Positions 3,885 to 63,300 of a DNA stretch of 64,000 nt are shown here, piece by piece; within the stretch, counting starts at the first letter, position 1; the number at the start of each line of letters is the position of its first letter. A program made the translations under genes and the position numbers. The notes under the pieces are model-generated. The model ran no database searches. It had not been told where the DNA came from and saw only the letters and a list, made by a program, of their open reading frames with translations. The stretch is from an uncultured Dokdonia sp. (GTDB taxonomy: Bacteria; Bacteroidota; Bacteroidia; Flavobacteriales; Flavobacteriaceae), in contig CALKZS010000070.1 in NCBI GenBank assembly GCA_938002835.1, forward strand, positions 1,560 to 65,559, in the 5' to 3' direction.

Positions 3885-3900
3885 CGCTTTCGCGAAAGCG
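3885..3900. repeat. Palindrome copy 2, intergenic upstream of cysS
   Basis: Exact 16-mer. Confidence 0.97.
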
Positions 3901-11276: not shown

Positions 11277-11292
11277 CGCTTTCGCGAAAGCG
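11277..11292. repeat. Palindrome copy 3, between tatC and the CMD gene (extends to 18 bp)
   Basis: Exact 16-mer with A/T flanks. Confidence 0.97.
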
Positions 11293-15469: not shown

Positions 15470-15485
15470 CGCTTTCGCGAAAGCG
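15470..15485. repeat. Palindrome copy 4, between the recQ stop and a TACATTTG promoter element
   Basis: Exact 16-mer. Confidence 0.97.
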
Positions 15486-18680: not shown

Positions 18681-19550
18681 ATGAGTAGTTTAAAATCCCA
18701 CGTTATTTACGATGCACGTAAAAGACGTGGGATTTTGTTTTTTGCATTGATTATTATTTTAGTGACCATCATCATCATATGGTATCATCCCAATAAGACT
18801 GTTGATATCTCTGAAATCGAACAGCTAAAAGTTGAAAACCTTCAAAGAGAAATTGATTCCCTTAAAAGTATAGCTATAGAGAACAGCAAACCTAAGATAT
18901 ATCCATTTAACCCTAATTTTATAACAGACTATCGTGGTTATACATTAGGTATGACTCCAGAAGAGATAGATAGATTGTTGCGCTTTCGCGAAAGCGGGAA
19001 ATGGATAAATTCTACACGAGATTTTAAAAATGTAACTCAAGTGTCCGATTCTTTGCTGGCTATTATTTCTCCTTATTTTAAATTTCCTCAATGGGTTACA
19101 AACACGAAGCCAACAACAAATACTACTACTAAGTGGAAAACGAAGGAACAAAAACAAGAGCTAAATAAACTGACCTATGAGTCTTTGTTGGAAATAGATG
19201 GAGTGAATGAACAGGATGCAACAAAGATAATAACACATCTCAATAAAGTTGGAGGTTATCAAGTAGACCAACAGCTATACGATGTATATGGGGTATCTTC
19301 TAAAGTAAAGCGATTAGTGCTTAATGATTATACAGTCAAAGAAAAACCAAAAATTGAATTAATTAATGTAAATACCGCAACTGCTTCAGATCTTTCTACT
19401 ATTCCTTTGCTTAACTTTGAACTAGCAAAAGAGATTGTAGATTATCGCATATTGAGAGAAGGAATAAAATCTCTTGAAGAGCTTCAAAAATTAGATGGGA
19501 TGACCGATTATAAATTTGAAAGAATAAAGCTATATTTACATATAAATTAA
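18681..19550 (+). CDS. ComEA-like helix-hairpin-helix DNA-binding protein
   Basis: One TM, FNPN motif, INVNTATASDLSTIP HhH repeat. Confidence 0.82.
   Translation: MSSLKSHVIYDARKRRGILFFALIIILVTIIIIWYHPNKTVDISEIEQLKVENLQREIDSLKSIAIENSKPKIYPFNPNFITDYRGYTLGMTPEEIDRLLRFRESGKWINSTRDFKNVTQVSDSLLAIISPYFKFPQWVTNTKPTTNTTTKWKTKEQKQELNKLTYESLLEIDGVNEQDATKIITHLNKVGGYQVDQQLYDVYGVSSKVKRLVLNDYTVKEKPKIELINVNTATASDLSTIPLLNFELAKEIVDYRILREGIKSLEELQKLDGMTDYKFERIKLYLHIN
18981..18996. repeat. Palindrome copy 5, inside the ComEA-like gene (RFRES frame)
   Basis: Exact 16-mer. Confidence 0.97.
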
Positions 19551-23074: not shown

Positions 23075-23090
23075 CGCTTTCGCGAAAGCG
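23075..23090. repeat. Palindrome copy 6, in the tRNA-Gly/tRNA-Thr spacer
   Basis: Exact 16-mer ending 10 nt before tRNA-Thr. Confidence 0.97.
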
Positions 23091-27734: not shown

Positions 27735-27754
27735 GCTCAACATAATAACTAGAT

Positions 27755-27808
27755 AAAGGTTTAGGTTGATTGCGCTTTCGCGAAAGCGTAATTTGACCTA
27801 AACCATTT
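27755..27808 (+). terminator. Long hairpin after rplL whose apex is palindrome copy 7
   Basis: GGTTTAGGTT/GACCTAAACC arms continuing through GATTG/TAATT into the palindrome. Confidence 0.65.
27773..27788. repeat. Palindrome copy 7, rplL-rpoB spacer
   Basis: Exact 16-mer. Confidence 0.97.
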
Positions 27809-27928
27809 GTCGTATATAATAGTTGCATACTATGTAACACGACTCATTTCTTGATTTTAGGTCGGTAACTAAAAGTCAAAATTTGAACTTGCTAAGGGGC
27901 AAGTTTAGTTCTAATCAAATTCCGTTCG

Positions 27929-31753: not shown

Positions 31754-31787
31754 ATGGTTTTTGGAAAGTGGAATCTCTTGGGATTCC

Positions 31788-31801
31788 GCTTTCGCGAAAG
31801 C
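31788..31801. repeat. Palindrome copy 8 (14-bp core), rpoB-rpoC spacer, abutting a small hairpin at 31770-31787
   Basis: GCTTTCGCGAAAGC exact; flanks C/A. Confidence 0.97.
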
Positions 31802-36148: not shown

Positions 36149-36168
36149 TACGCTTTCGCGAAAGCGTA
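36149..36168. repeat. Palindrome copy 9 (20 bp, TACGCTTTCGCGAAAGCGTA), starting immediately after the rpoC stop
   Basis: Exact. Confidence 0.97.
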
Positions 36169-38285: not shown

Positions 38286-38305
38286 TACGCTTTCGCGAAA
38301 GCGTA
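38286..38305. repeat. Palindrome copy 10 (20 bp), beside the bidirectional terminator
   Basis: Exact. Confidence 0.97.
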
Positions 38306-41215: not shown

Positions 41216-41231
41216 CGCTTTCGCGAAAGCG
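41216..41231. repeat. Palindrome copy 11, in the predicted ndk 5' leader
   Basis: Exact 16-mer. Confidence 0.97.
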
Positions 41232-43855: not shown

Positions 43856-43871
43856 TGCTTTCGCGAAAGCA
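43856..43871. repeat. Palindrome copy 12, TGCTTTCGCGAAAGCA (symmetric T/A flank variant)
   Basis: Exact core; both outer bases differ from CG but remain complementary. Confidence 0.97.
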
Positions 43872-43975
43872 CACTGAAACCCATAATCATATTGTAATCT
43901 CTTAATTTGTAGTCATACGGTTATAATCTTTGATAGTAAACTATTATTTTTGAGTTATATCTTTAAAAAATAAAA

Positions 43976-44173
43976 ATGACGTTTCTTTATTTTGATCCAG
44001 GATTAGGTGCTATGATTGCACAAGGACTTGTCGCTATAGTTGCAGGTATTGTGTTGTTTTCTAAAAATGCACTTTTTAAAATAAAATCAATGTTGGGTCT
44101 TGTAAAAGAAGATGATTATGATGGGATCGACATAGATGAAGCAGATGCAGATGAAGATGAAGAAGATAAGTAA
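43976..44173 (+). CDS. 65-aa single-TM peptide with YFDPGLGA motif and acidic tail
   Basis: ATG preceded by an A-rich leader, hydrophobic helix, overlaps the next start. Confidence 0.72.
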   Translation: MTFLYFDPGLGAMIAQGLVAIVAGIVLFSKNALFKIKSMLGLVKEDDYDGIDIDEADADEDEEDK

Positions 44174-45536
44174 GAAACACGAGTCTTCTTTTAGAGATCC
44201 TTCTGGTTATGTGTTTTATGATGGAGACATTTTACGAAGGCGCATACTTCCTATATACTTTAAACAATACAAAGCACTTTCTGAGACAGGTTTTTTTAAG
44301 ACACTATCTAGAAAAGGATTACTTGTATCACATACACTCACCTCAGAAAATGAGAATGAAATCATTATTACTCCAGAGGAGATTCCTTTTATTACCTATC
44401 CATATGAATGGGGTTTTGAGCAGTATAAACAAGCAGCTTTACTCACATTAAAAATACAAAAGTATGCACTCACTAAAGGGTTTTGGCTCAAAGATGCTTC
44501 GGCCTATAATGTGACGATGTATCAAGGTAAACCTATTTTTATAGACTCCCTTTCTTTTGATTTTTATGAAGAAGGAACACCTTGGAGAGCCTATAAACAG
44601 TTTATTACTCATTTTTTTGGTCCGCTGGTGTTATCAAAATACTTTGGAAGTGATATGATAAAGATGATGCAATCTCATATAGATGGGATTCCCTTGCAAC
44701 TCATCTCATCAATGTTACCTTCAAAAACAAAGTTGAGCCCTACATTACAATCTAATATTCATTTACTAGCTAGATTAGAAGGAAAGCATAATGATGACTA
44801 TAAAGGAGAAACTAAGGTCTCAAAATTAAGTTTAAAAGCACTTAATACCATTTTAGATAGTCTGTATGATTATATCATAAAATTGCAATTTAAAGATGCT
44901 ACAGAGTGGGGAGATTATTATTCAAAGACTAATTATGATGCACAATCTTTTGAAGCAAAAAAGAAGTTAATAAAAGAATGGGTTTTACCATTAAAGGCAA
45001 AACGTATTATTGATGTAGGAGGAAATGATGGTACATTTGCAAGAGCTTTAGATAGTGATGCGCATCTTATAGTTACAGATATTGATGTAAATGCTGTAGA
45101 TCAAAATTTTAAAAAAGCACAAGCTCAAACCGAAGATAATATGTTAGCCTTTGTGAGTGATGTATTACAGCCTTCACCAGCAATAGGTTTTAATAATACA
45201 GAACGCGAATCTCTCATAGAGCGATTAGAAAAATATGCTCCAGATGTGACAATGGCACTTGCGTTAATACATCATATCACACTATCTGGCAATGTGCCTT
45301 TTGATAAATCGGCTTCTTTTTTTGCATCTTTTTCTGAACATCTCATTATTGAATTCCCTAAGCGAGAAGATTCTTGGGTAGGATCATTATTAATAAGAAA
45401 ACGAGAGTTTATAAATCATTTTGATTTTTATAATGAGTCCCATTTTGAAGAAGAGTACAAACAATATTTTGTATTAGAGAAAAAAGAAATAATTGTGGGA
45501 ACCTCACGTTTACTTTATTATTTCAAAAAGAAATAA
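44157..45536 (+). CDS. NoeA-like protein: N-terminal kinase-like domain + C-terminal SAM-dependent methyltransferase (start revised from 44136)
   Basis: SFRDPSG, LKDASAYN (DxxxxN), IFID; IIDVGGNDG SAM motif I, LALIHH. Confidence 0.8.
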   Translation: MKKISKKHESSFRDPSGYVFYDGDILRRRILPIYFKQYKALSETGFFKTLSRKGLLVSHTLTSENENEIIITPEEIPFITYPYEWGFEQYKQAALLTLKIQKYALTKGFWLKDASAYNVTMYQGKPIFIDSLSFDFYEEGTPWRAYKQFITHFFGPLVLSKYFGSDMIKMMQSHIDGIPLQLISSMLPSKTKLSPTLQSNIHLLARLEGKHNDDYKGETKVSKLSLKALNTILDSLYDYIIKLQFKDATEWGDYYSKTNYDAQSFEAKKKLIKEWVLPLKAKRIIDVGGNDGTFARALDSDAHLIVTDIDVNAVDQNFKKAQAQTEDNMLAFVSDVLQPSPAIGFNNTERESLIERLEKYAPDVTMALALIHHITLSGNVPFDKSASFFASFSEHLIIEFPKREDSWVGSLLIRKREFINHFDFYNESHFEEEYKQYFVLEKKEIIVGTSRLLYYFKKK

Positions 45537-47021
45537 ATGTCTCAAAATAAAAAACAAGGAGTACTCCAGAAATTTTTAAATAATAAAAGATCATTTCCTG
45601 TACTTGCAGGAATTTTGGCTGGGTTATATCCTATGCTTTTTTATGCAAGTAATAACTACACATTAATAAATACCTTAGGACATTTAGGCTATTTTTTAAT
45701 GATGTATATTACAATTCCTGTTGTAGTTATTTGGCTTCTATATACCTTTAGTAAAAAAGTAGTAAATGGAAAGTATACAAAGTATGTCATACCATTTTTA
45801 GGGAGTTTTATTTTTCTTTTTTTAATGCATATTTCTTATTTCGGGTTTTTGAAAAAGAAAATATCTGTGGGTCTTTTACTTATAGCAGTTTTGATTGCTT
45901 TTTTCTTATGGCGACAGTTTAAAAAGTTAATTGTTATACAAGGATTACTAGCTATAATAGGATTAATTACACTTGTGCCTAGATTAATAGAAGCAATCAC
46001 ATATGATGATTCTTGGGGGGAAGTGTCTTCAGAAATACGTGAAGCTACTTTTGTAAAAAAACCTAATATTTATTATATACAACCAGATGGTTATGTGAAT
46101 TTTTCTGAATTGTATAAAGGACATTATAAATCTAAAGACAGTACTTTTCAAAAATATCTTACTAAAAACAGCTTTACGTTTTATCCAGATTTTAGAAGTA
46201 ATTATGCTTCTACTCTTACCTCAAATAGTGCTACATTTATGATGAAGCATCATTATTATAATGGCAATCTAACTTTAGAAAATTATAATGCTCGTGATGT
46301 CATTGTTTCAAAAAATACGGTATTAGATATTTTAAAGTCTAATAATTATAAAACTCATTTACTTACAGAGCTTCCTTACTTATTACTTAATAGGCCTAAA
46401 ATGGGTTATGATTTTTGTAATATAGATTATAATGATGTAAATTATATAGGGACAGGGTTAGGTAAACCAGTTTCTACATATGATGTTCTTATGGAACATT
46501 TAAGTCTTCCTACTGAGCAACCTAATTTCTTTTTTATTGAGATTTTTAACCCAGGACATATTCACGGTAATGCAAATAAGTCTCAAGGAGTTCAGGGAGA
46601 ACGTGCATTATGGTTTGAAAGCCTGGAGATGGCACATATGAAGGTAAAAAAACACGTAGATCTTATAAAACAAAATGATCCTAATGCACTTATTATTTTG
46701 ATGGCAGATCACGGTGGTTTTGTAGGATTAGACTACACACAACAAGCTTTAAGTAAGATAGAAGATAGAGATTTATTGTATAGTATTTATAGTGCAAACT
46801 TGGCTATACACTGGCCTAATAAAACAGATCTAGAAAAGGAACTTCCTTTTAAAAGTGGTGTAAATTTCTTTAGAGTACTTATTTCATATCTTAGTAACAA
46901 TCAAAAATTGCTAGAAGAGCAAGAAAATAATGGAAGTTATGCAGTTATTAAAGAAGGAGCATCGCCAGCCATTTATCAGGTAATTGATGATAACGGAAAT
47001 GTAACATTCAAAAAACAATAG
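45537..47021 (+). CDS. Membrane-bound alkaline-phosphatase-superfamily (LtaS/sulfatase-like) protein
   Basis: About 5 TM, then PNIYYIQPDGY, STLTS, HIHG, ILMADHG. Confidence 0.78.
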   Translation: MSQNKKQGVLQKFLNNKRSFPVLAGILAGLYPMLFYASNNYTLINTLGHLGYFLMMYITIPVVVIWLLYTFSKKVVNGKYTKYVIPFLGSFIFLFLMHISYFGFLKKKISVGLLLIAVLIAFFLWRQFKKLIVIQGLLAIIGLITLVPRLIEAITYDDSWGEVSSEIREATFVKKPNIYYIQPDGYVNFSELYKGHYKSKDSTFQKYLTKNSFTFYPDFRSNYASTLTSNSATFMMKHHYYNGNLTLENYNARDVIVSKNTVLDILKSNNYKTHLLTELPYLLLNRPKMGYDFCNIDYNDVNYIGTGLGKPVSTYDVLMEHLSLPTEQPNFFFIEIFNPGHIHGNANKSQGVQGERALWFESLEMAHMKVKKHVDLIKQNDPNALIILMADHGGFVGLDYTQQALSKIEDRDLLYSIYSANLAIHWPNKTDLEKELPFKSGVNFFRVLISYLSNNQKLLEEQENNGSYAVIKEGASPAIYQVIDDNGNVTFKKQ

Positions 47022-47996
47022 TTTATCTATAAAGTTTATACATATCATCCTAATCATAAAAACGAGTGGAATGCTTTTGTAGCCATTTCTAAAAATGCCA
47101 CATTTTTGCATAACCGAGATTTTGTAGAGTATCACTCAGATAGATTTTTAGATCATTCATTAATAGTAAAAAAGGGAGAGCATATAGTTGCATTAGTACC
47201 AGCACATAAAGCAGGTGCTATAGTGCATAGCCATCAAGGGCTTACGTATGGTGGGATTTTGCTTTCGCGAAAGCAAAAAACGAAAGATACTCTCGAGATA
47301 GTAAAGGCAATACTTCTATTTCTAGAAAGTCAAGGTATCCTTAGACTTTCCATTAAGCCAGCACCACATTTTTATATGAAGCAACCTAGTGAGGAGATAG
47401 CTTATGTGTTACAATTATTAAATGCAAATTGTTACCGTATAGATACAGCCTCTGTAATAGATAATCGAGATAGATTACCCATACAGTCTAATAGAGTAGA
47501 AGGTGTGAGAAAAGCGCAGAAAAAGGGATTAATTATCAAGGAAGAAGCTGTTTTTAATGATTTCTGGCAACAAATTTTAGTGCCTAATCTCACAAAAAAA
47601 TATCAATCAAAACCTACACACACCCTTGAAGAAATAGTGTTGCTACAACACTGCTTTTCAAATAACATTAGACAGTTCAATGTATATGATGGGAAAGAAA
47701 TAGTAGGAGGAACTACTATTTTTGAAACTTCGACAGTAGCGCACGTTCAATATATCTCTGGTAATGATAATAAACAAGAGTTAGGAACATTAGATTTTCT
47801 TTTTCATTATCTCATTACAGATATATTTGCTCATAAAAGGTATTTTGACTTTGGGATTTCAAATGAAAATCAAGGAAAAAACCTAAATAGCGGATTGTCA
47901 TATTGGAAAGAATGTTTTGGTGCGCGCACGTTTGTACACAGACATTATGAAGTAGAAACTAAGAATCATTCACTTTTAAATGATGTGTTAATATGA
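47022..47996 (+). CDS. GNAT/FemAB-like acyltransferase; family-like N-terminus extends to 47022 but the first canonical start is TTG 47106
   Basis: W..FV..SKNATFLHNRDF.EYHSDRF, HQGLTYGG, FDFGISNE, WKECFGAR. Confidence 0.8.
   Translation, partial: FIYKVYTYHPNHKNEWNAFVAISKNATFLHNRDFVEYHSDRFLDHSLIVKKGEHIVALVPAHKAGAIVHSHQGLTYGGILLSRKQKTKDTLEIVKAILLFLESQGILRLSIKPAPHFYMKQPSEEIAYVLQLLNANCYRIDTASVIDNRDRLPIQSNRVEGVRKAQKKGLIIKEEAVFNDFWQQILVPNLTKKYQSKPTHTLEEIVLLQHCFSNNIRQFNVYDGKEIVGGTTIFETSTVAHVQYISGNDNKQELGTLDFLFHYLITDIFAHKRYFDFGISNENQGKNLNSGLSYWKECFGARTFVHRHYEVETKNHSLLNDVLI
47257..47278. repeat. Palindrome copy 13 (22 bp, TTTT-core-AAAA), inside the GNAT gene (LSRK frame)
   Basis: Exact core 47261-47274. 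Confidence 0.97.
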
Positions 47997-49099
47997 TTCC
48001 TTTTTTAAATCTTAAGAATCTTAATGCTCCTTATGAGAAAGAACTCAAACAACAGTTTGACCGTTTTTTAAATACCGGATGGTATATTTTAGGAGAAGAA
48101 GTTACCTTTTTTGAAAAAGAATATGCTACCTATTGTGGGACATCGCATTGTGTAGGAACAGCAAATGGGCTGGACGCCATTCGTATTATTTTAGAAGGGT
48201 ATAAGATTTTAAAAAAACTTCATCTAGGAGATGAGGTTCTTGTAGCGAGTAATACCTATATAGCAACGATTATAGCAATTAAGCAAGCAGGATTAATTCC
48301 TGTTTTAGTAGAAGCAGATCTAGATACTTTTAATTTTGATTTTAAGGATCTAGAAAGTAAGATTACTTCTAAAACTAAAGTTGTATTACCTACACATCTT
48401 TATGGTCAGCTTACAGATATGGAGAAGATATTTGCTTTTGCAAAAGCACATCATTTATTAATTGTTGCAGATTGTGCTCAATCTCACGGGGCGCAAACTA
48501 ATGATGGTAATAAAAGTGGTTCTCTTGCAAATGCAGCTGCGCATAGCTTTTATCCTACAAAGAATCTAGGAGCTCTTGGTGACGCTGGGGCGATCACTAC
48601 AGATGATAATGAGCTGGCTGATGTAATTAAAAAATATAGAAATTACGGTTTTGAAAAAGCATATATTGCAAAGTATATAGGTGTTAATTCTCGTCTCGAT
48701 GAGTTACAAGCTGCTTTTTTGAGAATTAAATTAAGAGATTTAGACCATCAAAACAATAAACGCATTGCCATTGCAAAGCGTTATCTCTCAGAGATTAAAA
48801 ATGAATATATCATAATGCCTCAATGGAATGGCCAGAAAGATCACGTTTTTCATTTGTTTGTGATTCGTTCTAAGTATCGCAATGAACTACAAGAGTATTT
48901 GAAGAATAATGGGATACATACCATTATTCATTACCCAATACCACCACATAAACAAGAAGCGTTACAGGAGTTTAAAGAACTTTATTTTCCTACTAGTGAG
49001 CAGTTACATAATGAGGTACTAAGTATTTCTACAGATCCTACATTAACGCCAGTTGAGGTAGATAAAATCATCAGTGTTATAAACAATTTTGTATGCTAG
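47993..49099 (+). CDS. DegT/DnrJ/EryC1/StrS PLP-dependent sugar aminotransferase (FdtB/QdtB-like)
   Basis: NGLDA, DCAQSHG, SFYPTKNLG, NSRLDELQAA. Confidence 0.93.
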   Translation: MIPFLNLKNLNAPYEKELKQQFDRFLNTGWYILGEEVTFFEKEYATYCGTSHCVGTANGLDAIRIILEGYKILKKLHLGDEVLVASNTYIATIIAIKQAGLIPVLVEADLDTFNFDFKDLESKITSKTKVVLPTHLYGQLTDMEKIFAFAKAHHLLIVADCAQSHGAQTNDGNKSGSLANAAAHSFYPTKNLGALGDAGAITTDDNELADVIKKYRNYGFEKAYIAKYIGVNSRLDELQAAFLRIKLRDLDHQNNKRIAIAKRYLSEIKNEYIIMPQWNGQKDHVFHLFVIRSKYRNELQEYLKNNGIHTIIHYPIPPHKQEALQEFKELYFPTSEQLHNEVLSISTDPTLTPVEVDKIISVINNFVC

Positions 49100-50394
49100 G
49101 GAAGTTGTATGGTAAGATTACAAACAACCTACTTTTAAAGATTACTTCTTTAAATGCCATAGCAGTATTATTCCAAATAATAGGAGGTTTTATCACTTCA
49201 AAACTCATTGCAATTTATTTAGGTGAACGAGGAATGGCATTGTTAGGATATTTGCGCAATTTTTTGACCACCACACAGGCTATAGCAAACCTAGGTTATA
49301 GTAATGGCGTTGTAAAATATGTAGCTTCTCATAAAGATAATAAACCGTTATTATCAAAGATGTTGTCATCTTCTATTATTATGAGTTTTGTTGCCTCCAT
49401 AATAATTTCTGTGATATTGTATGTAGGAGCTCCGTTCTGGAATAATGCCGTTTTTGGAAGAGACATATCTTATGTCTATATATTTAAATATCTTGCTTTT
49501 GCTATTCCTTTTATCACAGCAAATAGTATTCTGATTGCAATTATAAATGGACAATCTGCCTATAAAAAAGTGGTATGGATTAATATAGTGACTAATGCAA
49601 TGGGTATTGGGATTACCGCCTATTTGATCATCACAAAAGGAATAGAAGGAGCATTTATTGCAATGGTGATAAGTCCAGCTATTGCAGTATTAGTCACATT
49701 AATTTTAATAGGAAAACAAGCTAGACTTCTAAGATTATTAGTTGCCAAAGTATCATTTACGGCCATAAAGAAAATGAGTTCATACACCATTATGGCTGTT
49801 TTTTCTATGATGGTTTTACCTTTGGTTTATATTGCGATACGTAATCAAATTGTAACTTCAAGCGGAATTGAAGCAGCGGGTTATTGGGACGCGATGACAC
49901 GTATTTCTGATTATTACATCAAGTTTGTAGCTACAGTGATGACTTTGTATATATTACCACAGCTTGCAAAAACAACAACTGATGTTGCATTTAGAAAAGA
50001 GATTTTTGCGTTTTATAAAACAATATTGCCTTTGTATGGTGTAGGTTTGCTAATAATATTTTTATCTAGAAAGTTTATTATCCAGATACTGTTTACAGAA
50101 GATTTTATACCTGTATCATCGCTTTTTAAATGGCAATTATTAGGAGATTTTTTTAAGGTAGCCTCTCTGGTGATAGGATATCAAATTATTGCTAAAAATA
50201 ATTTAAAACTCTTTCTATTCACTGAGATTATCTCTCTTATAGTAATATATATATCAGGAATTTATTTTGTAAAATTGTATGGGTATGAAGGTGGTGCCAT
50301 AGGACATTGTTTAAGTTATTTTGTGCATTTATTAATGTTACTGTTTATCTTTAGAAAACCACTTTTTGGAAAAATAAAAGAAGCCAGTGCGTAG
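49093..50394 (+). CDS. wzx: O-antigen/oligosaccharide flippase (WzxE-like)
   Basis: About 12 TM, G..GMA..G..RNF, AGYWDAM.RISD, WQLLGDFFK. Confidence 0.88.
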   Translation: MLGKLYGKITNNLLLKITSLNAIAVLFQIIGGFITSKLIAIYLGERGMALLGYLRNFLTTTQAIANLGYSNGVVKYVASHKDNKPLLSKMLSSSIIMSFVASIIISVILYVGAPFWNNAVFGRDISYVYIFKYLAFAIPFITANSILIAIINGQSAYKKVVWINIVTNAMGIGITAYLIITKGIEGAFIAMVISPAIAVLVTLILIGKQARLLRLLVAKVSFTAIKKMSSYTIMAVFSMMVLPLVYIAIRNQIVTSSGIEAAGYWDAMTRISDYYIKFVATVMTLYILPQLAKTTTDVAFRKEIFAFYKTILPLYGVGLLIIFLSRKFIIQILFTEDFIPVSSLFKWQLLGDFFKVASLVIGYQIIAKNNLKLFLFTEIISLIVIYISGIYFVKLYGYEGGAIGHCLSYFVHLLMLLFIFRKPLFGKIKEASA

Positions 50395-50917
50395 ATTAGG
50401 ATCTTTCATACAGTTTTTTCGTATTCTTAAATACAAGTTACTTTCAACAAATAAACACATTGAAGGTAAAGCAATAGTACATCAACCTGCTCAGGTAAAT
50501 GGAGAAGGGGTAATACGCTTTCGCGAAAGCGTACACATAGGGGTCACAAATTCACCCCAGTTTTATAATACATATGCATATATAGAGGCTCGAAAGAAAG
50601 GGAGTGAGATTGTTTTTGGAGAGAATGTAGCAATCAATAATAACTTTTGTGCAATTGCAAATGAATCGTCTATTACTATTGGAGATCATACCACGATAGG
50701 ATATAACGTATCAATTTATAACTGTAACTTTCATAGTCTTGACCCTGAAAAACGAAGAGAAGAAACTGGTAGTAGTAAACCTGTATATATCGGGAAGAAT
50801 GTTTTTATAGGAAATAACGTAAGCATTTGGAAAGGTGTCACCATAGGAGACAATGCTATTATACCCGCAGGAAGTATTGTAAAAGTTGATGGCTTAGAAG
50901 GAAGTACTTTTTCTTAA
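50387..50917 (+). CDS. Left-handed beta-helix O-acyltransferase (GTG start)
   Basis: Hexapeptide repeats, PVYIGKNVFIG, KGVTIGDNAII. Confidence 0.87.
   Translation: MRRLGSFIQFFRILKYKLLSTNKHIEGKAIVHQPAQVNGEGVIRFRESVHIGVTNSPQFYNTYAYIEARKKGSEIVFGENVAINNNFCAIANESSITIGDHTTIGYNVSIYNCNFHSLDPEKRREETGSSKPVYIGKNVFIGNNVSIWKGVTIGDNAIIPAGSIVKVDGLEGSTFS
50514..50533. repeat. Palindrome copy 14 (20 bp), inside the acyltransferase gene (RFRES frame)
   Basis: Exact. Confidence 0.97.
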
Positions 50918-50921
50918 ACTC

Positions 50922-50960
50922 TAATATCGGATAAAAATAAATTATATTTATCCGATATTA
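50922..50960. promoter_or_regulatory. Perfect 14-bp inverted repeat (11-nt spacer) upstream of fic; putative operator
   Basis: TAATATCGGATAAA-N11-TTTATCCGATATTA. Confidence 0.65.
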
Positions 50961-50965
50961 AAGAG

Positions 50966-50973
50966 TATCTTTG
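50966..50973 (+). promoter_or_regulatory. Sigma-A -7 element TATCTTTG 4 nt before the fic GTG (near-leaderless)
   Basis: TAnnTTTG match. Confidence 0.5.
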
Positions 50974-50977
50974 GGAT

Positions 50978-51934
50978 GTGGAAAACTGGAAAGATATACA
51001 GTTAGAGTATGATTTACTTGATTTTTTAAAGCGTCTAGATGCTCAAAAAAATCAATTAGATAGTTACAGACCTATCCCACCTACTAAAATAAAGAGTATT
51101 AAAGAGTCTCTAGATCTAGAATGGACATATAATTCTAACAGTATAGAAGGGAATACATTATCTTTAATGGAAACCCTTGTGGTTGTTAAAGATGGTCTTA
51201 CCATTGCTGGAAAATCTTTGAGAGAGCATTTTGAAGTGATTAATCATACAGAGGCTATTGCTTTTGTAGAAGACTTGGTACAACCTAATTATAAACTTTA
51301 CAAAAGAGATATACTTGAGGTACACGCTCTGGTTTTAGATAAGATTGATAAAGAGATTGCAGGTATTTATCGTGATGGCTCTGTAAGAATACAAGGAGCA
51401 AACTTTGTTCCTCCAGAGGCATTATTAGTAAGAGAGTTAATGGACGATCTTATAGATTGGTACAATACCACTGCTCAAAAATTACATCCTATTGTAAGAG
51501 TGAGTGTTTTCCATCATCGTTTTGTTTGGATACATCCTTTTTTTGATGGTAATGGTCGTACGGCTAGACTTATTTTTAATTTATTATTAATGAGTGCTGG
51601 GTTCCCTCCAGCTATTATCCTTAAGGTAGATAGAAAAAAATATTACGCATCTCTAAATGCTTCTAATAAAGGTGATTATGCTAAGTTTTTTTTATTAGTC
51701 GCTCAAGCAGCAGAGCGTTCTTTATCTATATATTTGGGTGGTTTAGATAATACGTTACATAGCTATAAACCTATTAATGATATTGTTAATGAACCAGATG
51801 TGCCTTATGGTCAGGAATATGTAAGCTTGCTTGCAAGAAGGGGTAAGATAGAAGCATACAAAGAAGGACGTGTATGGTATACTAGTAAAAAAGCAATAGA
51901 TACCTATCGCAAGACTAGAGAACGAAAACGATAA
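50978..51934 (+). CDS. Class II Fic-domain protein with a C-terminal HTH_17/excisionase-like tail
   Basis: HPFFDGNGRTAR catalytic motif; SNSIEG inhibitory motif; EYVSLLARRGKIEAYKEGRVWYT tail. Confidence 0.9.
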   Translation: MENWKDIQLEYDLLDFLKRLDAQKNQLDSYRPIPPTKIKSIKESLDLEWTYNSNSIEGNTLSLMETLVVVKDGLTIAGKSLREHFEVINHTEAIAFVEDLVQPNYKLYKRDILEVHALVLDKIDKEIAGIYRDGSVRIQGANFVPPEALLVRELMDDLIDWYNTTAQKLHPIVRVSVFHHRFVWIHPFFDGNGRTARLIFNLLLMSAGFPPAIILKVDRKKYYASLNASNKGDYAKFFLLVAQAAERSLSIYLGGLDNTLHSYKPINDIVNEPDVPYGQEYVSLLARRGKIEAYKEGRVWYTSKKAIDTYRKTRERKR

Positions 51935-51938
51935 TACT

Positions 51939-53075
51939 TTATGCTTTACTCCAAGTGTCTAGATATTGTTGAGCTATTTTGATATAATGGTGCTCGTGTT
52001 CTATAAAGGCACGAGCATTCTTGCTTATAGTTGTTATTTCTTCTTTGTTTTTTAAAAGGTATTCAAGTTTGTTTGCAATTTGTTGAGCGTCTGGAGTAGC
52101 ATCTATGAGTACTGTGTCTGTAAGATTATAGTACGATATAAAATGGGTTCCTGCTCCAGAGAACACCACTTTTCCCTTTGCCATAGCTTCTAAAGCATTA
52201 TAGCCCTGATCGTGAGAATATACTTGATCTAATAAAATATGAGCACTGTTATAGGCATTTATATAATCTTTGTATGGTAAGCTCTCTACAGTAATAACCT
52301 GTATTTCATTAGTATATTTTTTTAAAATTATAGAAAGCGCTTCTTCAAAGATATCATTCCCTTTCTTATAGAAATTTGCTCTATTAATACCGTGAAAAAT
52401 GACAATAGGATTCTTTTCTTCTAAGATTTTGCAGGCTATATTATCAACATTAATGGGGTTAGGTATAAGTCCTAGATATTTAGGGTGATTATTGAGTGGT
52501 ATGTGATAATCTAGATCTGTAGCAATGATACCATCTACTAGTTCGTAAAGAGTATTGCTAAGTTTTTTGTATGATGGTTTTAGATACTTAAGTACTGCCT
52601 GAAAATGATGGTCATTAATCTTTCCTTCTTTATATGGAGTTACTATTGTATAGGGAAGTTCATCAGAAAAAGCGTGGCCAACACTAATGTGATCTGTACC
52701 ACAAGATAAAAGAAATAGTTTTTTATTGTTTTCTTTGAGGTATTGCGCTATTTCTAACTCGACTGCTGGTGTACTTTGAAAACTAGATTCATTAATAAGT
52801 TGTACCACATCATAACCAGAAAGTTGCCATTTTAGTTTTGTAAATGCTTTGCGCAAATACAAAGCAGCAATGTCGATAGAAGTTAATTTTAGAATGGCTA
52901 TTCGTAGTTTCTTTTTCCATCCGCTTTGAAAACCCATTGTTAGATGTATATCTACGGGGTATTGTTTAAAACCATCACCAGAGCCTACGATTGTAACTTT
53001 ATGACCTAGTGATTGTAACCCTTCTTTTAATGAATTATGTAAACGGCTATATTCTCCTATAAGTAAGATGCGCAT
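51939..53075 (-). CDS. GT-B (GT4-like) glycosyltransferase
   Basis: RILLIGEYS, FHGINR...KG, YNALEAMAKGK. Confidence 0.88.
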   Translation of the reverse strand: MRILLIGEYSRLHNSLKEGLQSLGHKVTIVGSGDGFKQYPVDIHLTMGFQSGWKKKLRIAILKLTSIDIAALYLRKAFTKLKWQLSGYDVVQLINESSFQSTPAVELEIAQYLKENNKKLFLLSCGTDHISVGHAFSDELPYTIVTPYKEGKINDHHFQAVLKYLKPSYKKLSNTLYELVDGIIATDLDYHIPLNNHPKYLGLIPNPINVDNIACKILEEKNPIVIFHGINRANFYKKGNDIFEEALSIILKKYTNEIQVITVESLPYKDYINAYNSAHILLDQVYSHDQGYNALEAMAKGKVVFSGAGTHFISYYNLTDTVLIDATPDAQQIANKLEYLLKNKEEITTISKNARAFIEHEHHYIKIAQQYLDTWSKA

Positions 53076-53079
53076 TCGC

Positions 53080-53087
53080 TATATTTG
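53080..53087 (+). promoter_or_regulatory. Sigma-A -7 element TATATTTG in the 29-bp divergent gap
   Basis: TAnnTTTG 17 nt before TTG 53105. Confidence 0.5.
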
Positions 53088-53104
53088 GTATTCAAAAAAA
53101 ACTT

Positions 53105-54187
53105 TTGTCTAAAGATACTCATAAAAAAATTGCATTAATTACGATTTCACTCGCTGGAGGAGGTGCAGAGAAATCTACAGCATTGCTTTCTAAAATGTTA
53201 GATCACAAAGGGTTTGAAGTACATATAATTGTACTAAACGACGCTATAGATTTTTCATATGCTGGGAAGTTGTATAATATGGGGATTTTTAAAAAAAAAG
53301 GAGATTCTATTTTAAAAAAAGTCAAACGCTTTACAGCGCTTAGAAAATACATTAAGAAAGAAGATTTTGACTTTATCATTGATAATAGGAGTAGAGATAA
53401 TACTATTAAAGAGCGCTTTTATCTGTATTACATTTATAAAAATCAACAGGTCATATATGTATCACGTAGTTTTAAGTTAGATAATTATTTTACTAATGAT
53501 AGTAAAATAGGTCAACAGATGATTCAGAAATCTTCTGGAGTTATTGGAGTATCTCAAGCAATAAGTAAAGAGATAAACCAGAAGTATAATACACAAAAGG
53601 CTGTTACAATATATAACCCGGTAGAATTTATCGATGTTTCGTCAGTTATGGAAATAGATGTCCCTTACTTCATTTTTGTGGGTAGACTTTTAGACAAGGT
53701 AAAAAATGTGAGTTTGTTGATTAACGCTTTCGCGAAAGCTAAAAAAGAAAACCACCATCTTAAGATATATGGTGATGGGATTGATAAAGAACGCCTTATG
53801 ATACTTTCTAAAACCTTAGGGATGGATAATAAAATATTATTCTATCCATTTAAAGAAGATATTTATCAAGATATTGCAGCTGCAAAGGCTTTACTTTTAA
53901 CCAGTCATTATGAAGGATTTCCTAGAGTGCTCATAGAGGCATTGTCTATGGGAACTCCTGTGATAAGTGTAGATTGCCAAAGCGGGCCCAATGAAGTTAT
54001 AACTCATAAAGAAAATGGGTTGCTAGTAAAAAACTATGATCAAGTTGTATTTACAGAAGCTATAGAATCTTTTATATTTGACACCGATTTGTATACTACT
54101 TGTAAACAGAATGCAGTAAAGAGTGTAAGTCACTTGAAAACAGATATTATTGCATCACAATGGAGCGATTATTTAAATAAAATATAA
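53105..54187 (+). CDS. GT4 glycosyltransferase (TTG start)
   Basis: GGGAEK, FVGRL, EGFPRVLIEA, HKENGLLV. Confidence 0.92.
   Translation: MSKDTHKKIALITISLAGGGAEKSTALLSKMLDHKGFEVHIIVLNDAIDFSYAGKLYNMGIFKKKGDSILKKVKRFTALRKYIKKEDFDFIIDNRSRDNTIKERFYLYYIYKNQQVIYVSRSFKLDNYFTNDSKIGQQMIQKSSGVIGVSQAISKEINQKYNTQKAVTIYNPVEFIDVSSVMEIDVPYFIFVGRLLDKVKNVSLLINAFAKAKKENHHLKIYGDGIDKERLMILSKTLGMDNKILFYPFKEDIYQDIAAAKALLLTSHYEGFPRVLIEALSMGTPVISVDCQSGPNEVITHKENGLLVKNYDQVVFTEAIESFIFDTDLYTTCKQNAVKSVSHLKTDIIASQWSDYLNKI
53726..53739. repeat. Palindrome copy 15 (14-bp core), inside the GT4 gene (AFAKA frame)
   Basis: Exact core; flanks C/T. Confidence 0.97.
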
Positions 54188-60281: not shown

Positions 60282-60301
60282 TACGCTTTCGCGAAAGCGT
60301 A
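60282..60301. repeat. Palindrome copy 16 (20 bp), in the predicted TPR-gene leader
   Basis: Exact. Confidence 0.97.
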
Positions 60302-60325: not shown

Positions 60326-63300
60326 ATGCATAGAATCAAGTATCTACTTGTAGCATTTATTTTATACACAACAGCTTCTGTAGCACAACAAACAGCTATA
60401 TATACAAATGACCTTGCTGCATTTAATAAAGCATTGTCATTATATAATAGCAATCAATATCTGGCATCTCAAACACTTTTTGAAGAAGTAAAAGCAGCCT
60501 CAACAGATGAAACTGTAAAGGGTGATTGTGCATATTATATAGCAAATGCAGCAGTACGACTTAACCAGCAAGGTGCAGATAATCTAATGTTAGAATTTGT
60601 AACAGATTATCCTACTAGTACCAAACGTAATAGCGCATTTTTAGATGTAGCGTCTTATTATTTTGAAAATGGAAAATATTCATATGCCAGAAAATGGTAT
60701 GATCGTGTAGAAGAAAAAAACCTTTCTGGATCAGAGCGCGAAACCTATGATTTTAATAATGGATATGCATACTTTAAAAATGATCGTTTTGAAGAAGCAA
60801 AAAAATACCTCAATCGTGTAAGAGATTCAAAAAAATATGGATCACAAGCAAAGTACTACATAGGCTTTATGGCATATGAAGGTGATGATTATGATCAAGC
60901 AAATGAGTTGTTTAATGAAGTAGAGGCCGAAACTGGAGGAGAGTACAATGAAGATTTAGCCTATTTTAAAGCAGATCTTAATTTTAAGTTAGGAAAATTT
61001 GACGAAGCAATTGCAGAAGGAAAATCACAACTCCCAAGAGCCACCGCTGCCGAAAAATCTGAACTAAACAAGATTATAGGAGAAAGCTACTTTAATCAAG
61101 AAAAATATGCAGAGGCATTGCCCTATTTAAAGGAATATAAAGGTAAACGCGGTAAGTGGAATAATACAGACTATTATCAACTAGGATATACATATTATAA
61201 ACAAGGAGATTATCAAAATGCAATTAACGAGTTTAATAAAATAGTAGATGGTCGTAATAGCACTGCTCAAAACGCATATTATCACCTAGCAGAATCGTAC
61301 CTAAAATTAGATAAAAAGCAAGAAGCACTAAATGCATTTAAAAATGCTTCAGAGATGGAGTTTGATGCAAAAATTAAAGAAGATAGTGGTCTTAATTATG
61401 CAAAACTAAGTTATGAGATGGGAAATGCATATAAACCTACACCTACAGTTATTTCAGATTATTTAAAGGAGTATCCTAAAACGCAAGCAAAAGAAGAGCT
61501 TCAAACATTATTAATAGACTCATATATTACTTCAAAAAACTATAAAGAAGCAATGCGTTTATTAGAAAGTAATAGTAATGCAGATAATAAAGCGGCATAT
61601 CAAAAAGTGGCTTTTTTATATGGATTAGAACTCTATAATGAAGGTAATTACCCAGATGCAGATAAAGCATTTAAAAAATCTTTAAAAGAACCTCGTGATC
61701 CATTATATGTTACAAGAGCTACATATTGGGTAGCAGAAGGAGATTATATAGCAAATGATTTTAAAGAAGCAATCATAGGCTATAAAGACTTTATGAATAC
61801 TAGCAATGCTACAAGTACACCAGAATATATAGATGTACAATACAATCTTGCCTATGCTTATTTTTCAGACAAGCAGTATGATCAAGCAGCCATTCATTTT
61901 GAAAATTATACTAATGCTACAGATAATGATATCACAAGAAAAAATGATGCCTATTTGCGTTTAGGCGATAGCCGTTTTATATCAAGTAAATATTGGCCAG
62001 CGCTAGAAGCATATAATAGTTCTATTGCTTTAAATCAAACAGGACAAGATTATGCTACTTTTCAAAAATCAATGAGTTATGGTTTTATTAAAAAGAATGC
62101 AGAAAAGATAGATGGTCTAAAAAGTTTTTCAAGCAAATTTCCAACCTCTACATATCGTGATGACGCATTATATGAGTTAGGAAATATCTATGTAACACAA
62201 AATAAAAATGACCAAGCAATTGCAGCATACGATCAGTTGGTTCGTGATATACCTAAAAGTTCTTATGTCTCAAAAGCATTACTCAAAAAAGCATTAATTT
62301 ATGATAATAGTAACAGATCTGAAGAGGCACTTACGATCTTAAAAAAGGTGGCTCGTGATTATCCAGGAACACCAGAATCTTTACAGGCAGTGACTACAGC
62401 AAAGTTAATTTATGTAGACTTGGGTCGTGTTAATGAGTATGGGCAATGGGTAAGTACATTAGATTTTATTAGTGTAGAAGATGGAGAGCTAGATGACGCA
62501 GCATATGCGCAAGCAGAGAAGCAATATGTCGATAATAACACAGGTCAGGCAGAAAAACTTTTAAAGAGTTATTTAGAAGAATATCCTAATGGGCAGCATA
62601 CCTTAAATGCGCATTTTTATGTGGGGCAACTCGCTTTCGCGAAAGCTGACTACACAGCAACAATACCTCATTATAAGTATGTGATTTCTAAAGAGCGCAA
62701 TGAGTTTACAGAGCAAGCACTTGCAAGATTAGGTCAAGTATACCTTACCGAAAAAGATTATACAGCAGCTACACCTATTTTAAAACGATTAGAAACTGAA
62801 GCAGATTTTCCTCAGAATGTCATTTTTGCACAGTCTAACTTGATGAAATCATATTATGAGCAAGATAATTATAGTCAATCTATCACTTATGCAGAAAAAG
62901 TGCTGGATAATGTAAAGATTGATAATGCAGTAAAAAGTGATGCGCAAATAATTATAGCAAGGTCTTCTATAAAGACCAATAATGAGTCACGTGCAAAAAC
63001 AGCCTATGCAGAAGTGCAAAAAATAGCGACAGGAGCGCTAGCAGCAGAGGCTTTATATTATGATGCATATTTCAAAAATAAAGATAATGCTTATGAAGCT
63101 TCAAATGTGACTGTACAAAAACTAGCAAGTGAGTATAGTGGTTATAAAGAGTATGGAGCAAAAGGGCTGGTACTTATGGCAAAGAATTTTTATGCTTTAG
63201 GAGATGCATATCAAGCAACGTATATACTAGAAAGTGTGATAACAAACTTTACAGATTTTCCAGACGTGGTAAAAGACGCAGAAGCGCAACTTGAAATTAT

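Follow-up and report, generated by a model that had tools for sequence, protein, structure and literature searches.

The palindrome and its copies in the window

The window, i.e., the 64,000-nt stretch of Dokdonia sp. DNA that was analyzed, includes cysS, a ComEA-like gene, tuf, the rplL-rpoB-rpoC region and a glycan operon. Within and between its genes, 17 exact copies of GCTTTCGCGAAAGC, a 14-letter palindrome that is its own reverse complement, were counted (Table 1).

Table 1. Exact copies of the palindrome, and one near-copy, in the window
Feature	Position	Strand	Context
Exact copy	2460..2473	.	inside cysS, hypervariable linker, peptide AFAKA; kept in five genus relatives
Exact copy	3886..3899	.	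intergenic
Exact copy	11278..11291	.	intergenic; orthologous copy in G009
Exact copy	15471..15484	.	stop codon 17 nt before
Exact copy	18982..18995	.	inside ComEA-like (HHH_3) gene; conserved in G009, G012
Exact copy	23076..23089	.	upstream of tuf, between tRNA genes
Exact copy	27774..27787	.	rplL-rpoB spacer, apex of long hairpin
Exact copy	31788..31801	.	rpoB-rpoC spacer
Exact copy	36152..36165	.	4 nt past rpoC stop codon
Exact copy	38289..38302	.	between convergent genes
Exact copy	41217..41230	.	between divergent genes
Exact copy	43857..43870	.	intergenic, head of glycan operon
Exact copy	47261..47274	.	inside GNAT-like ORF, codon phase 2, peptide LLSRK
Near-copy GCTTTTGCAAAAGC	48434..48447	.	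symmetric double C>T / G>A variant
Exact copy	50517..50530	.	inside hexapeptide acyltransferase gene, phase 1, peptide RFRES
Exact copy	53726..53739	.	inside GT4 glycosyltransferase gene, phase 0, peptide AFAKA
Exact copy	60285..60298	.	between divergent genes
Exact copy	62633..62646	.	inside gene for 1006-aa TPR protein

The hairpin capped by the rplL-rpoB copy is strong (-16.2 kcal/mol, z = -6.9), and this copy is missing from the relatives G012, G018 and G241. Of 20 genomes of the genus, 19 have the rpoB-rpoC copy in exact form at this position; in G014 it has decayed to three mismatches. An earlier reading of the window from its sequence only had placed three glycan-operon copies inside genes in three different frames, and this was confirmed for the copies starting at 47261, 50517 and 53726.

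The whole genome (G000) carries 612 copies, compared to 0.0025 expected; here and in the genus, the density is about one copy per 4-5 kb, in genes and spacers alike. The core, which includes TCGCGA, is preceded by T and followed by A, and the consensus around it (TTAC-core-GTAA) makes a palindrome of 14-22 bp. Genome-wide, exact copies outnumber 1-mismatch copies 6 to 1, with C>T transitions being the most frequent changes among variant copies. A third to half of the copies are located inside genes, in all three frames and on either strand. No published description of this palindrome was found in the literature searched.

A newly noticed feature is a mirrored compositional skew that extends approx. 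20-25 nt from the core, with a C-poor 5’ side and a G-poor 3’ side; the 5’ flank of each strand is C-poor and G+T-rich, and the palindrome core and its flanks together form a symmetric unit of about 55-60 bp. The flanks share composition only, as neither sequence conservation nor pairing or covariation of mirrored positions was found.

Spacing of the copies

The gaps between successive copies in the window, as listed in the sequence-only reading, were reproduced (mean 3761 bp; CV 0.40 as population and 0.41 as sample value), as was the absence of any gap below 1.4 kb (P = 0.0026 under an exponential model); a CV as low as that of the window has P = 9e-5 for 17 uniform points. Genome-wide, the 612 copies provided 438 within-contig gaps, which were compared to four nulls (1000 simulations each) that keep contigs, the intergenic/in-gene class, or one site per intergenic region. 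The gaps had a CV of 0.557 versus 0.95-1.07 in the nulls, the lowest simulated value across all four being 0.80. Only 3.4% of gaps were below 1 kb, versus 18-26% in the nulls, and 11.6% were below 2 kb, while counts in 10-kb windows had a variance/mean ratio of 0.43 versus 0.92-1.07 (lowest 0.67). Spacing is therefore non-random well beyond what gene length or intergenic availability could account for. Under-dispersion was also found in five relatives, with a CV of 0.72 in G009 (2.05 Mb contiguous; gaps below 1 kb, 3.1% versus 20.8% expected) and of 0.43-0.69 in G006, G019, G012 and G246.

The near-regular 3-4 kb lattice that had been proposed from the window did not hold up. Successive gaps have a serial correlation of 0.02 here and of -0.01 in G009, whereas about -0.5 would be expected for a jittered lattice; in the pair correlation, examined to 25 kb, the only features are a hole below 2 kb and a weak first peak, with oscillation absent over that range. 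In two genomes, the hazard for the next copy starts near zero, up to 1-2 kb, then ramps up and stays roughly constant between 3 and 10 kb, at about 0.35 per kb past approx. 3 kb, and the gap distribution is gamma-like with a shape of about 3. The consecutive steps of 3404, 3256 and 3209 bp that had been taken as regularity are not unusual (2 such triples genome-wide versus 0.75 expected, P = 0.17). Since gaps are uncorrelated and the hazard is flat beyond 3 kb, only closeness is avoided, with no sign of a preferred period or a maximum-gap rule; since the hazard is near zero at short range and then flat, a short-range exclusion is followed by memoryless placement. Placement is thus a renewal process, in which two copies almost never lie less than approx. 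1 kb apart and seldom less than 2 kb. Two species have a similar exclusion scale.

As the sequence-only reading had suggested, in-gene copies fill in away from other copies, as only 13% of them are within 2 kb of another copy, compared to 46.5% in the null, where 0 of 1000 simulations gave so low a value; all copies therefore form one class. Copies with one or two mismatches follow the same exclusion and fill gaps.

Gene context, conservation and origin of the copies

Occupancy is about equal in divergent (19%), convergent (16%) and tandem (17%) spacers; in tandem spacers, 37% of copies lie no more than 20 nt after a stop codon. This equal occupancy, along with the use of all three frames in genes, supports recognition that acts on DNA, and agrees with the previous view that the palindrome is not a gene regulator.

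The tag was present in all 30 same-genus relatives searched (24 and six more). Among 200 other genera of the family, only one had it in abundance, and none of the 16 other sampled families of the order had it. Between species with approx. 75% gene identity, 67% of anchored sites are conserved; of the sites that were aligned directly, 78% match the palindrome exactly in both species. In G009, the longest stretches devoid of sites correspond to integrase, GmrSD, type I restriction-modification and glycan islands. Many sites are thus conserved positionally across species and missing from mobile and defence islands. The two skew arms of the G009 chromosome have a uniform density, with 14-30 copies in each 100 kb. 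G014 has exact copies down to 70 versus 196 near-copies, and its orthologous sites have decayed; the tag is thus decaying in this one lineage.

The CysS segment that carries a copy has about equal length in the CysS proteins of 24 other genera, so this copy was written by substitution. More generally, the tag was very probably written via base substitution into spacers and into tolerant or variable protein segments, and has been kept exact across the genus. The copy number, the genome-wide under-dispersion and the shared exclusion of exact and near-copies all argue that each copy is, very probably, the site of a single DNA-level recognition tag, with an origin by substitution and renewal spacing.

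Possible functions of the tag

The sequence-only reading had attributed the spacing to selection by a chromosome-organizing landmark. Its non-random spacing stands, but a landmark is only one possible cause. A need for no more than one tag in each kb-sized fragment or domain would be expected to give the same statistics, as has been described for DNA uptake sequences (PMC2397512, PMC7811141). A nearby second tag would then gain nothing and would be neither fixed nor maintained.

Our best guess, held tentatively and at somewhat less than even odds, is that the palindrome is a self-DNA tag coupled to uptake or recombination, of the kind represented by USS, DUS and HIP1. The unit would be the DNA fragment exchanged between cells, and tags would accumulate through biased uptake or recombination of fragments of approx. 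2.5-3 kb; the hazard would then increase with distance until it reaches a plateau at the length of a fragment. USS are evenly spaced (Karlin 1996, as cited in PMC1939737), and an even USS distribution is the expected result of molecular drive (PMC7811141). DUS spacing matches conversion-tract length, and DUS are depleted from islands (PMC2397512). HIP1, likewise a palindrome, is now tied to transformation (PMC13756078), and Riemerella, a flavobacterium in the wider sense, is naturally transformable with non-pilus machinery (PMC8459023).

The presence of ComEC, DprA and a ComEA-like gene is consistent with an exchange tag, but these genes are near-universal and still intact in the decaying G014, and no report of natural competence in the genus was found in the literature searched. 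Moreover, known uptake sequences are non-palindromic and 4-5 times denser than this tag, a perfect palindrome of 14-22 bp fits a dimeric protein that binds duplex DNA, and uptake does not predict the mirrored flank skew. A type IV pilus/secretin system as the companion of the tag was not borne out; the secretin showed no link to copy number. Of 31 genus genomes, 13 have the secretin/pseudopilus cluster; six tag-rich genomes that are near-complete (99%) lack it, and 45 tag-free genera have it. Flavobacterial competence may use machinery other than secretin (PMC8459023).

Possible, but somewhat less likely, is an intracellular landmark, for which a genus-specific dimeric protein would bind the palindrome and approx. 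20 bp on each side and would organize, protect or process a domain of approx. 2.5 kb, e.g., as a supercoil barrier, a spreading nucleoprotein or a repair entry point, making a second site in an occupied domain redundant. The perfect core within its symmetric unit, the uniform density along both arms of the G009 chromosome and the similar exclusion scale in two species favor this explanation, and loss of the reader would explain the decay in G014. Some real phage structural modules also carry the tag at host-like density and spacing, for which a function inside the cell is better suited than uptake. On the other hand, a candidate protein was not found, selection alone would hardly keep hundreds of individually weak sites exact, and the flat hazard beyond 3 kb gives no sign of an upper limit on gap size, such as a structural scaffold might require. 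We also know of no bacterial chromosome-binding protein with 600-900 high-information sites.

A less probable form of this idea is that a chromosomal protein system not yet described loads or anchors at the palindrome and its skewed flanks and partitions the entire chromosome in this genus into units of at least 2.5 kb, possibly via supercoil barriers or entry points for replication restart or priming, and that phages of these hosts copy the tag to pass as self; the exclusion zone would then measure the reach of the protein. A ParB/Noc-type system with an extra ParB paralogue was rejected, as there is a single ParB_N gene in this genome, as in G054 and in most tag-free genera, and canonical parS sites were found elsewhere, on contig C124.

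It is unlikely that the palindrome is a Chi-like signal readable both ways, which would halt or modify a helicase-nuclease, with the G+T-rich 5’ strand serving as RecA-loading tract. The density of about one copy per 5 kb and the G+T-rich, C-poor 5’ flanks on both strands would suit such a signal by comparison with Chi density and the RecA preference for G+T-rich DNA in E. coli, and foreign islands lack copies while phage contigs have them. However, known Chi sites are 5-8 nt, asymmetric and strand-biased, whereas this motif is self-complementary and holds far more information than a single-strand channel reads, and we are aware of no reason why Chi-type sites should avoid each other.

Even less probable is a ratchet of very-short-patch-type repair, as proposed for HIP1, which would correct near-copies to exact ones and have no further function. 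It would account for the excess of exact over 1-mismatch copies, for C>T as the commonest variant and for TCGCGA inside the core, but it cannot sense a neighbor 1-2 kb away and leaves the exclusion zone unexplained, which argues against it as sole cause; the flank skew is also unexplained, and a search for a C5 methyltransferase (PF00145) gave no match in the 93% complete genome.

A miniature mobile element of the REP, MITE or RPE kind, with insertion near existing copies blocked by target immunity, is largely refuted and very improbable. High copy number, a palindromic core and fragments of IS200-type Y1 transposase in the genome are compatible with it, and target immunity would produce exclusion; however, the cysS copy added no length, flanks are unconserved in sequence and unpaired, copies occupy genes in all frames, site positions are conserved across species, and the Y1 fragments lie at contig ends rather than adjoining copies. 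Least probable of all is an RNA-level hairpin (terminator, attenuator or processing site), as the copies close behind stop codons in tandem spacers and the hairpin at rplL are outweighed by equally occupied divergent spacers, the many in-gene copies on either strand, a T/A order around the core that is the reverse of a terminator, flanks without covariation, folding of the 14-mer no better than that of shuffled sequence and the absence of an Rfam match.

Implications

Should the tag be a signal for uptake or recombination, Bacteroidota would have their first signal of this kind, and it would be evidence that abundant marine flavobacteria exchange DNA regularly, with the exclusion zone of 2-3 kb as a built-in estimate of the size of the exchanged fragments. 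If it is an in-cell landmark, it would represent a new kind of dense, high-specificity chromosome signal. For any mechanism, the spacing law (a hole below 1-3 kb and then memoryless placement, near-copies included) provides a quantitative target, and the decay in G014 could serve as a natural knock-out for finding the reader gene.

Comparison with known repeated sequences

Similar to USS in Pasteurellaceae and DUS in Neisseriaceae, the tag is a single lineage-restricted oligonucleotide over-represented by orders of magnitude in spacers and in genes, there in variable protein segments; its spacing is more even than chance would give, at the scale of exchanged fragments, and it is conserved at homologous positions and depleted from recently acquired islands. 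Unlike USS and DUS, it is a perfect palindrome of 14-22 bp, is 4-5 times sparser and has mirrored C-poor/G-poor flanks; it also occurs in Bacteroidota, and the secretin is uncorrelated with it.

With HIP1 (GCGATCGC) and other highly iterated palindromes of cyanobacteria, the tag shares an exact, short, hyper-abundant palindrome in coding and non-coding DNA that is conserved by selection, non-random spacing and a suspected role in uptake or transformation. HIP1, however, is an 8-mer with up to one copy per gene and cognate orphan methyltransferases, whereas no C5 methyltransferase (PF00145) was found in the 93% complete genome here. HIP1 periodicity has been reported at 18-94 kb (PMC5861425), while the signal of the tag is a nearest-neighbor exclusion of 1-3 kb.

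Enterobacterial REP/BIME sequences, for which a role in the nucleoid has been suggested, also number hundreds of palindromic copies that often lie just after stop codons, but REPs are imperfect, extragenic and linked to the RAYT transposase, whereas the copies of the tag are all exact and a third to half are inside genes. Finally, the binding sites of Noc (NBS) and ParB (parS) are likewise palindromes of 14-16 bp with TTTC...GAAA arms, and proteins spreading from such sites would make nearby sites redundant; their arm spacing differs from that of the tag by 2 bp, and those systems have tens of sites where the tag has hundreds.

Spacing of the palindrome

The repeat found in the window is a perfect 14-letter palindrome, GCTTTCGCGAAAGC, present as 17 exact copies and one near-copy (near-copies carry one or two mismatches). 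The positions and gaps listed for these 17 copies by the sequence-only reading were reproduced, with a mean gap of 3761 bp and a coefficient of variation (CV) of 0.40-0.41; a CV this low has a probability of 9e-5 for 17 uniformly placed points. The assembly as a whole (G000; 3.10 Mb, 196 contigs, 33.4% GC, with the window on contig C70) carries 612 exact copies (one per 5.06 kb; 0.0025 expected from base composition), as well as 99 near-copies with one mismatch and 108 with two. The consensus is longer than the core (TTAC-core-GTAA), with the 16-mer found in 344 copies and the 20-mer in 100. Intergenic copies number 317 of the 612, though intergenic DNA represents 13% of the genome, and 295 are within ORFs of 100 aa or longer, with 192 of these deep inside.

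The 438 within-contig gaps of G000 average 4250 bp, with 3.4% below 1 kb and 11.6% below 2 kb, and have a CV of 0.557, a very low value that results in part from long gaps being cut at contig ends, a censoring shared by all nulls used here. Four nulls were simulated 1000 times each on the same contigs as the observed copies, namely uniform placement (CV 1.00; 24% of gaps under 1 kb), placement that kept each copy intergenic or in an ORF as observed (1.07; 26%), and two nulls with a single site in each intergenic region, either with weighting by length (0.95; 18%) or among regions of 40 nt or more (0.96; 20%). Simulated CVs went no lower than 0.80, and the variance-to-mean ratio of counts per 10-kb bin was 0.43 as compared to 0.92-1.07 in the nulls (lowest 0.67). 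The claimed under-dispersion is thus real and persists when gene length is taken into account; an artefact of gene length or intergenic availability is ruled out by the four nulls. A complete genome of another species (G009), whose RpoC is 97% identical and whose genes are approximately 75-87% identical in DNA to those of the window's species, has 479 copies in 2.05 Mb of contiguous sequence. Its gaps have a CV of 0.72, with 3.1% below 1 kb versus 20.8% expected, and its variance-to-mean ratio is 0.51-0.64 across scales of 5-50 kb. Position lists from further relatives gave CVs of 0.69 (G006), 0.51 (G019), 0.48 (G012) and 0.43 (G246).

The sequence-only reading had also described a near-regular lattice of 3-4 kb, and this part of the description was not borne out. 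Successive gaps, for which a jittered lattice would give a correlation of about -0.5, were found to have correlations of 0.02 (Pearson) and 0.04 (Spearman) over 314 pairs in G000 and of -0.01 in G009. The pair correlation is 0.07-0.4 under 2 kb, shows a weak peak of 1.2-1.3 at 2.5-3.5 kb and is flat noise further out. Moreover, the run of 3404, 3256 and 3209 bp in the glycan operon is not special, with two such triples genome-wide versus 0.75 when the gap order is shuffled (P = 0.17). Together, these three tests rule out a lattice or other periodicity. The censoring-aware hazard, i.e., the chance of meeting the next copy per kb, is 0.01-0.08 under 2 kb, has climbed to 0.30-0.35 at 2.5-3 kb and remains at 0.3-0.45 up to 10 kb in G000; the G009 hazard ramps up over 1-3 kb to a plateau near 0.4 and drops past 10 kb because some regions are without sites. 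Gaps follow a gamma distribution with a shape of about 3 (likelihood-ratio statistic of 283 versus an exponential). Spacing thus obeys a law of exclusion at short range, beyond which placement is memoryless.

A single class of sites

The three copies in the glycan operon were confirmed to lie within genes, in phases 2, 1 and 0. The proposal that in-gene copies fill in the spacing is supported genome-wide, as deep in-gene copies shun other copies; only 13% have another copy within 2 kb versus 46.5% of random coding positions, and none of 1000 simulations gave a value that low. Near-copies shun exact copies as well, with 9.6% (one mismatch) and 14% (two mismatches) within 1 kb of one versus 39% of random positions. 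When near-copies are added, the CV stays at 0.55-0.57 (in G009 it drops to 0.65) and gaps above 8 kb are reduced to 1.7% versus 8.8% expected. This avoidance and gap filling indicate that near-copies take slots in the same system, and they are weak or recently decayed members of the tag set. The genes bracketed by close copy pairs are mutually unrelated. A GNAT-like ORF in the window (Table) was observed to lack an ATG start; its conserved-looking N-terminal peptide extends past the first TTG in the upstream direction and shares the frame of the preceding gene's end.

The copies also share a flank composition. Over approximately 20-25 nt, the left flank shows C reduced to 5-7%, G raised to 20-30% and T raised to 40-48%, and the right flank mirrors it, with G at 5-8%, such that on each strand the 5' side of the core is G+T-rich and C-poor. 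This skew is present in all classes (312 intergenic, 102 ORF-edge and 192 deep-ORF copies) and was found again in G009. Mirrored positions pair only as composition predicts; the flanks thus form no extended stem, which rules out an extended flank hairpin. The functional unit spans approximately 55-60 bp and has DNA-level symmetry.

A symmetric double variant, GCTTTTGCAAAAGC, in which both outer cytosines of TCGCGA show C>T, is present once in the window and in 27 other places in G000, for 28 copies in this genome and two in G009, and keeps the flank skew in weakened form. This variant is suggestive of decay, specific to one lineage, at a CpG hotspot, though no C5 methyltransferase was found in G000, and its scarcity in G009 rules it out as evidence of base pairing.

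Origin, conservation and decay of copies

The copy within cysS encodes AFAKA in a hypervariable linker, which is about as long (within one to three residues) in 24 other genera. As the linker is of similar length there, this copy was written by substitution and not by insertion of an element. A mobile element is ruled out by the lack of added length in the cysS alignment, the lack of a common flank sequence and the finding that IS200-type fragments do not adjoin copies; a link to RAYTs is likewise ruled out, since the Y1 transposase fragments are located at contig ends, away from copies.

All window copies from 2460 to 36152 have orthologous copies in G009, and most also in G012, G018, G241 and G246. 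Anchoring of 367 sites in G009 showed a copy no more than 100 bp from the predicted position for 67% of them. Direct alignment of 225 sites showed 175 that are exact in both genomes, 24 that differ by 1-3 letters, nine that differ by 6-9 letters and 17 that are gapped. The copy in the rpoB-rpoC spacer is exact and unchanged in position in 19 of 20 genus genomes. By comparison, one relative (G014) has 70 exact copies versus 196 near-copies, and both of its rpoC-flanking palindromes have decayed, with three mismatches each; another (G005) is intermediate. In the G014 lineage, the process that keeps the tag exact appears to have been lost, which makes this lineage a natural knock-out for finding the reader.

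Distribution across genomes, chromosome and phages

The tag was found in all 30 same-genus relatives searched, with 70-906 copies in the 24 counted. Sampling of 16 other families of the order gave no copies, and within the family only G054, out of 200 other genera, has the tag in abundance (722 copies); 32 genera have 1-16 copies, some tightly clustered. In 79 other Bacteroidota, no other "dialect" palindromes were evident around rpoB. Small clusters of 4-6 copies were observed in otherwise tag-free genera, and a 933-bp pair spacing recurs in three of them (Table); these may be islands transferred from the tag-bearing lineage.

Copy density in G009 is uniform along the chromosome and on both GC-skew arms. 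The largest stretches free of sites, 15-27 kb in length, comprise a low-GC glycan locus as well as islands with tyrosine integrases, GmrSD, type I restriction-modification genes and an Eco57I-type methylase. In addition, siphovirus-like contigs of one family, which encode a portal, protease, major head protein, adaptor and tape measure, have two to three exact copies in steps of 4.5-5 kb; the distances 4480 and 4880 bp are found repeatedly among these contigs, and one copy is inside the protease gene. No homologues of these modules were found in G000 or in 2.05 Mb of G009, and a GTA-like origin was rejected on this basis.

Location of features discussed in the text
Feature	Location	Remarks
rplL-rpoB spacer copy	window 27750-27812	
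Stem upstream of the rpoB-rpoC copy	window 31764-31801	
GNAT-like ORF	window 47021-47996	
Double variant	window 48434-48447	
parS-like sites	G000 C124, 13737 and 15639	outside window
Pseudopilin, ATPase and secretin cluster	G000:C59:5138-11178	loci L261, L262
Decayed rpoC-flanking palindromes	G014:C2:66299-73597, positions 1416 and 5923	locus L102
933-bp copy pair	G178:C1:436588 and 437521	
933-bp copy pair	G141:C1:2829431 and 2830364	
933-bp copy pair	G155:C1:2561727 and 2562660	
Tagged phage contigs	L303:1-14185	IMG/VR contig 3300039191_000376; also L287, L290, L291, L286, L298, L300

Candidate functions and readers

A terminator or RNA hairpin is ruled out by several findings: spacer occupancy is equal across spacer types (convergent 16%, divergent 19%, tandem 17%), T precedes and A follows the core, which is the reverse of the terminator arrangement, the 14-mer has no folding advantage over shuffled sequence, and an Rfam search of the window returned only tRNAs. 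In tandem spacers, 37% of copies are within 20 nt of the stop codon, and copies keep a distance of 40 nt or more to the next start, which looks like promoter avoidance. The copy in the rplL-rpoB spacer is at the tip of an approximately 21-bp hairpin (-16.2 kcal/mol as DNA, z = -6.9) in a classic attenuator position, but such a hairpin is not general among copies; this copy is missing in G012, G018 and G241. Upstream of the rpoB-rpoC copy, a 13-bp stem was observed in which GAAAGTGGAATCT pairs with GGGATTCCGCTTTC; this stem takes the palindrome's left arm and, as an alternative structure, would form in competition with the core hairpin.

No extra ParB/Noc paralogue was found, as G000 and G054 each have a single ParB_N gene, like tag-free genera. 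This and canonical parS sites on C124 rule out a ParB/Noc-type reader. The two parS-like sites, TGTTCCACGTGAAACA and a 2-mismatch variant, are 1.9 kb apart and probably mark the origin-proximal ParB loading region. G000 also encodes a cluster of a pseudopilin, a GspE/PilB-like ATPase and a secretin (type II secretion or type IV pilus-like). The secretin was found in 13 of 31 genus genomes and 47 of 201 in the family; it is missing from six near-complete tag-rich genomes and present in 45 tag-free genera. Secretin presence is thus uncorrelated with tag abundance, ruling out the secretin/pseudopilus as reader. ComEC, DprA and a ComEA-like gene are present but near-universal, and intact in G014, and therefore do not discriminate; a short DprA in the two decaying genomes is a contig-end artefact. 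C5 methylation likewise fails as a reading, since a search of G000, whose assembly is 93% complete, gave no such methyltransferase.

Possible role and comparison with known systems

The facts call for a sequence-specific reader and a rule that a single tag per kb-sized unit suffices, and two models agree with this. Tentatively, the palindrome could serve as an exchange-coupled tag of the kind represented by DNA uptake sequences (USS/DUS). One tag per exchanged fragment would suffice, and the hazard would be predicted to ramp to a plateau at fragment length; a plateau is seen at approximately 2.5-3 kb. Drive would account for hundreds of individually weak sites staying exact. A landmark acting within the cell and read by a dimeric protein, the sequence-only reading having proposed a chromosome-organising one, is somewhat less likely; it is a better fit to the perfect symmetry and the 55-60 bp unit and agrees with the steps between tags on the siphovirus-like contigs, but the reader protein was not found. 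A role like that of the recombination signal Chi would account for the G+T-rich 5' flanks but fails on tag length and symmetry, and is very improbable.

The palindrome was found in no paper of the library searched, and a search on Nonlabens likewise returned nothing relevant. New here are the spacing law (1-3 kb exclusion, no lattice, near-copies included), the mutual avoidance between in-gene and intergenic copies, the decaying lineage, the tagged phage modules and the negative tests on secretin and ParB; the mirrored flank skew without pairing is a new addition to the description of the tag. With regard to the exchange-coupled tag, a passage of PMC1939737 cites Karlin 1996 for even spacing of USS/DUS, and an even distribution has been described as the expected outcome of molecular drive (PMC7811141). 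USS/DUS spacing has also been reported to match conversion-tract length, with islands depleted (PMC2397512), and these sequences to be placed in variable protein segments (PMC2817400). HIP1, the highly iterated palindrome of cyanobacteria, is now tied to transformation (PMC13756078).
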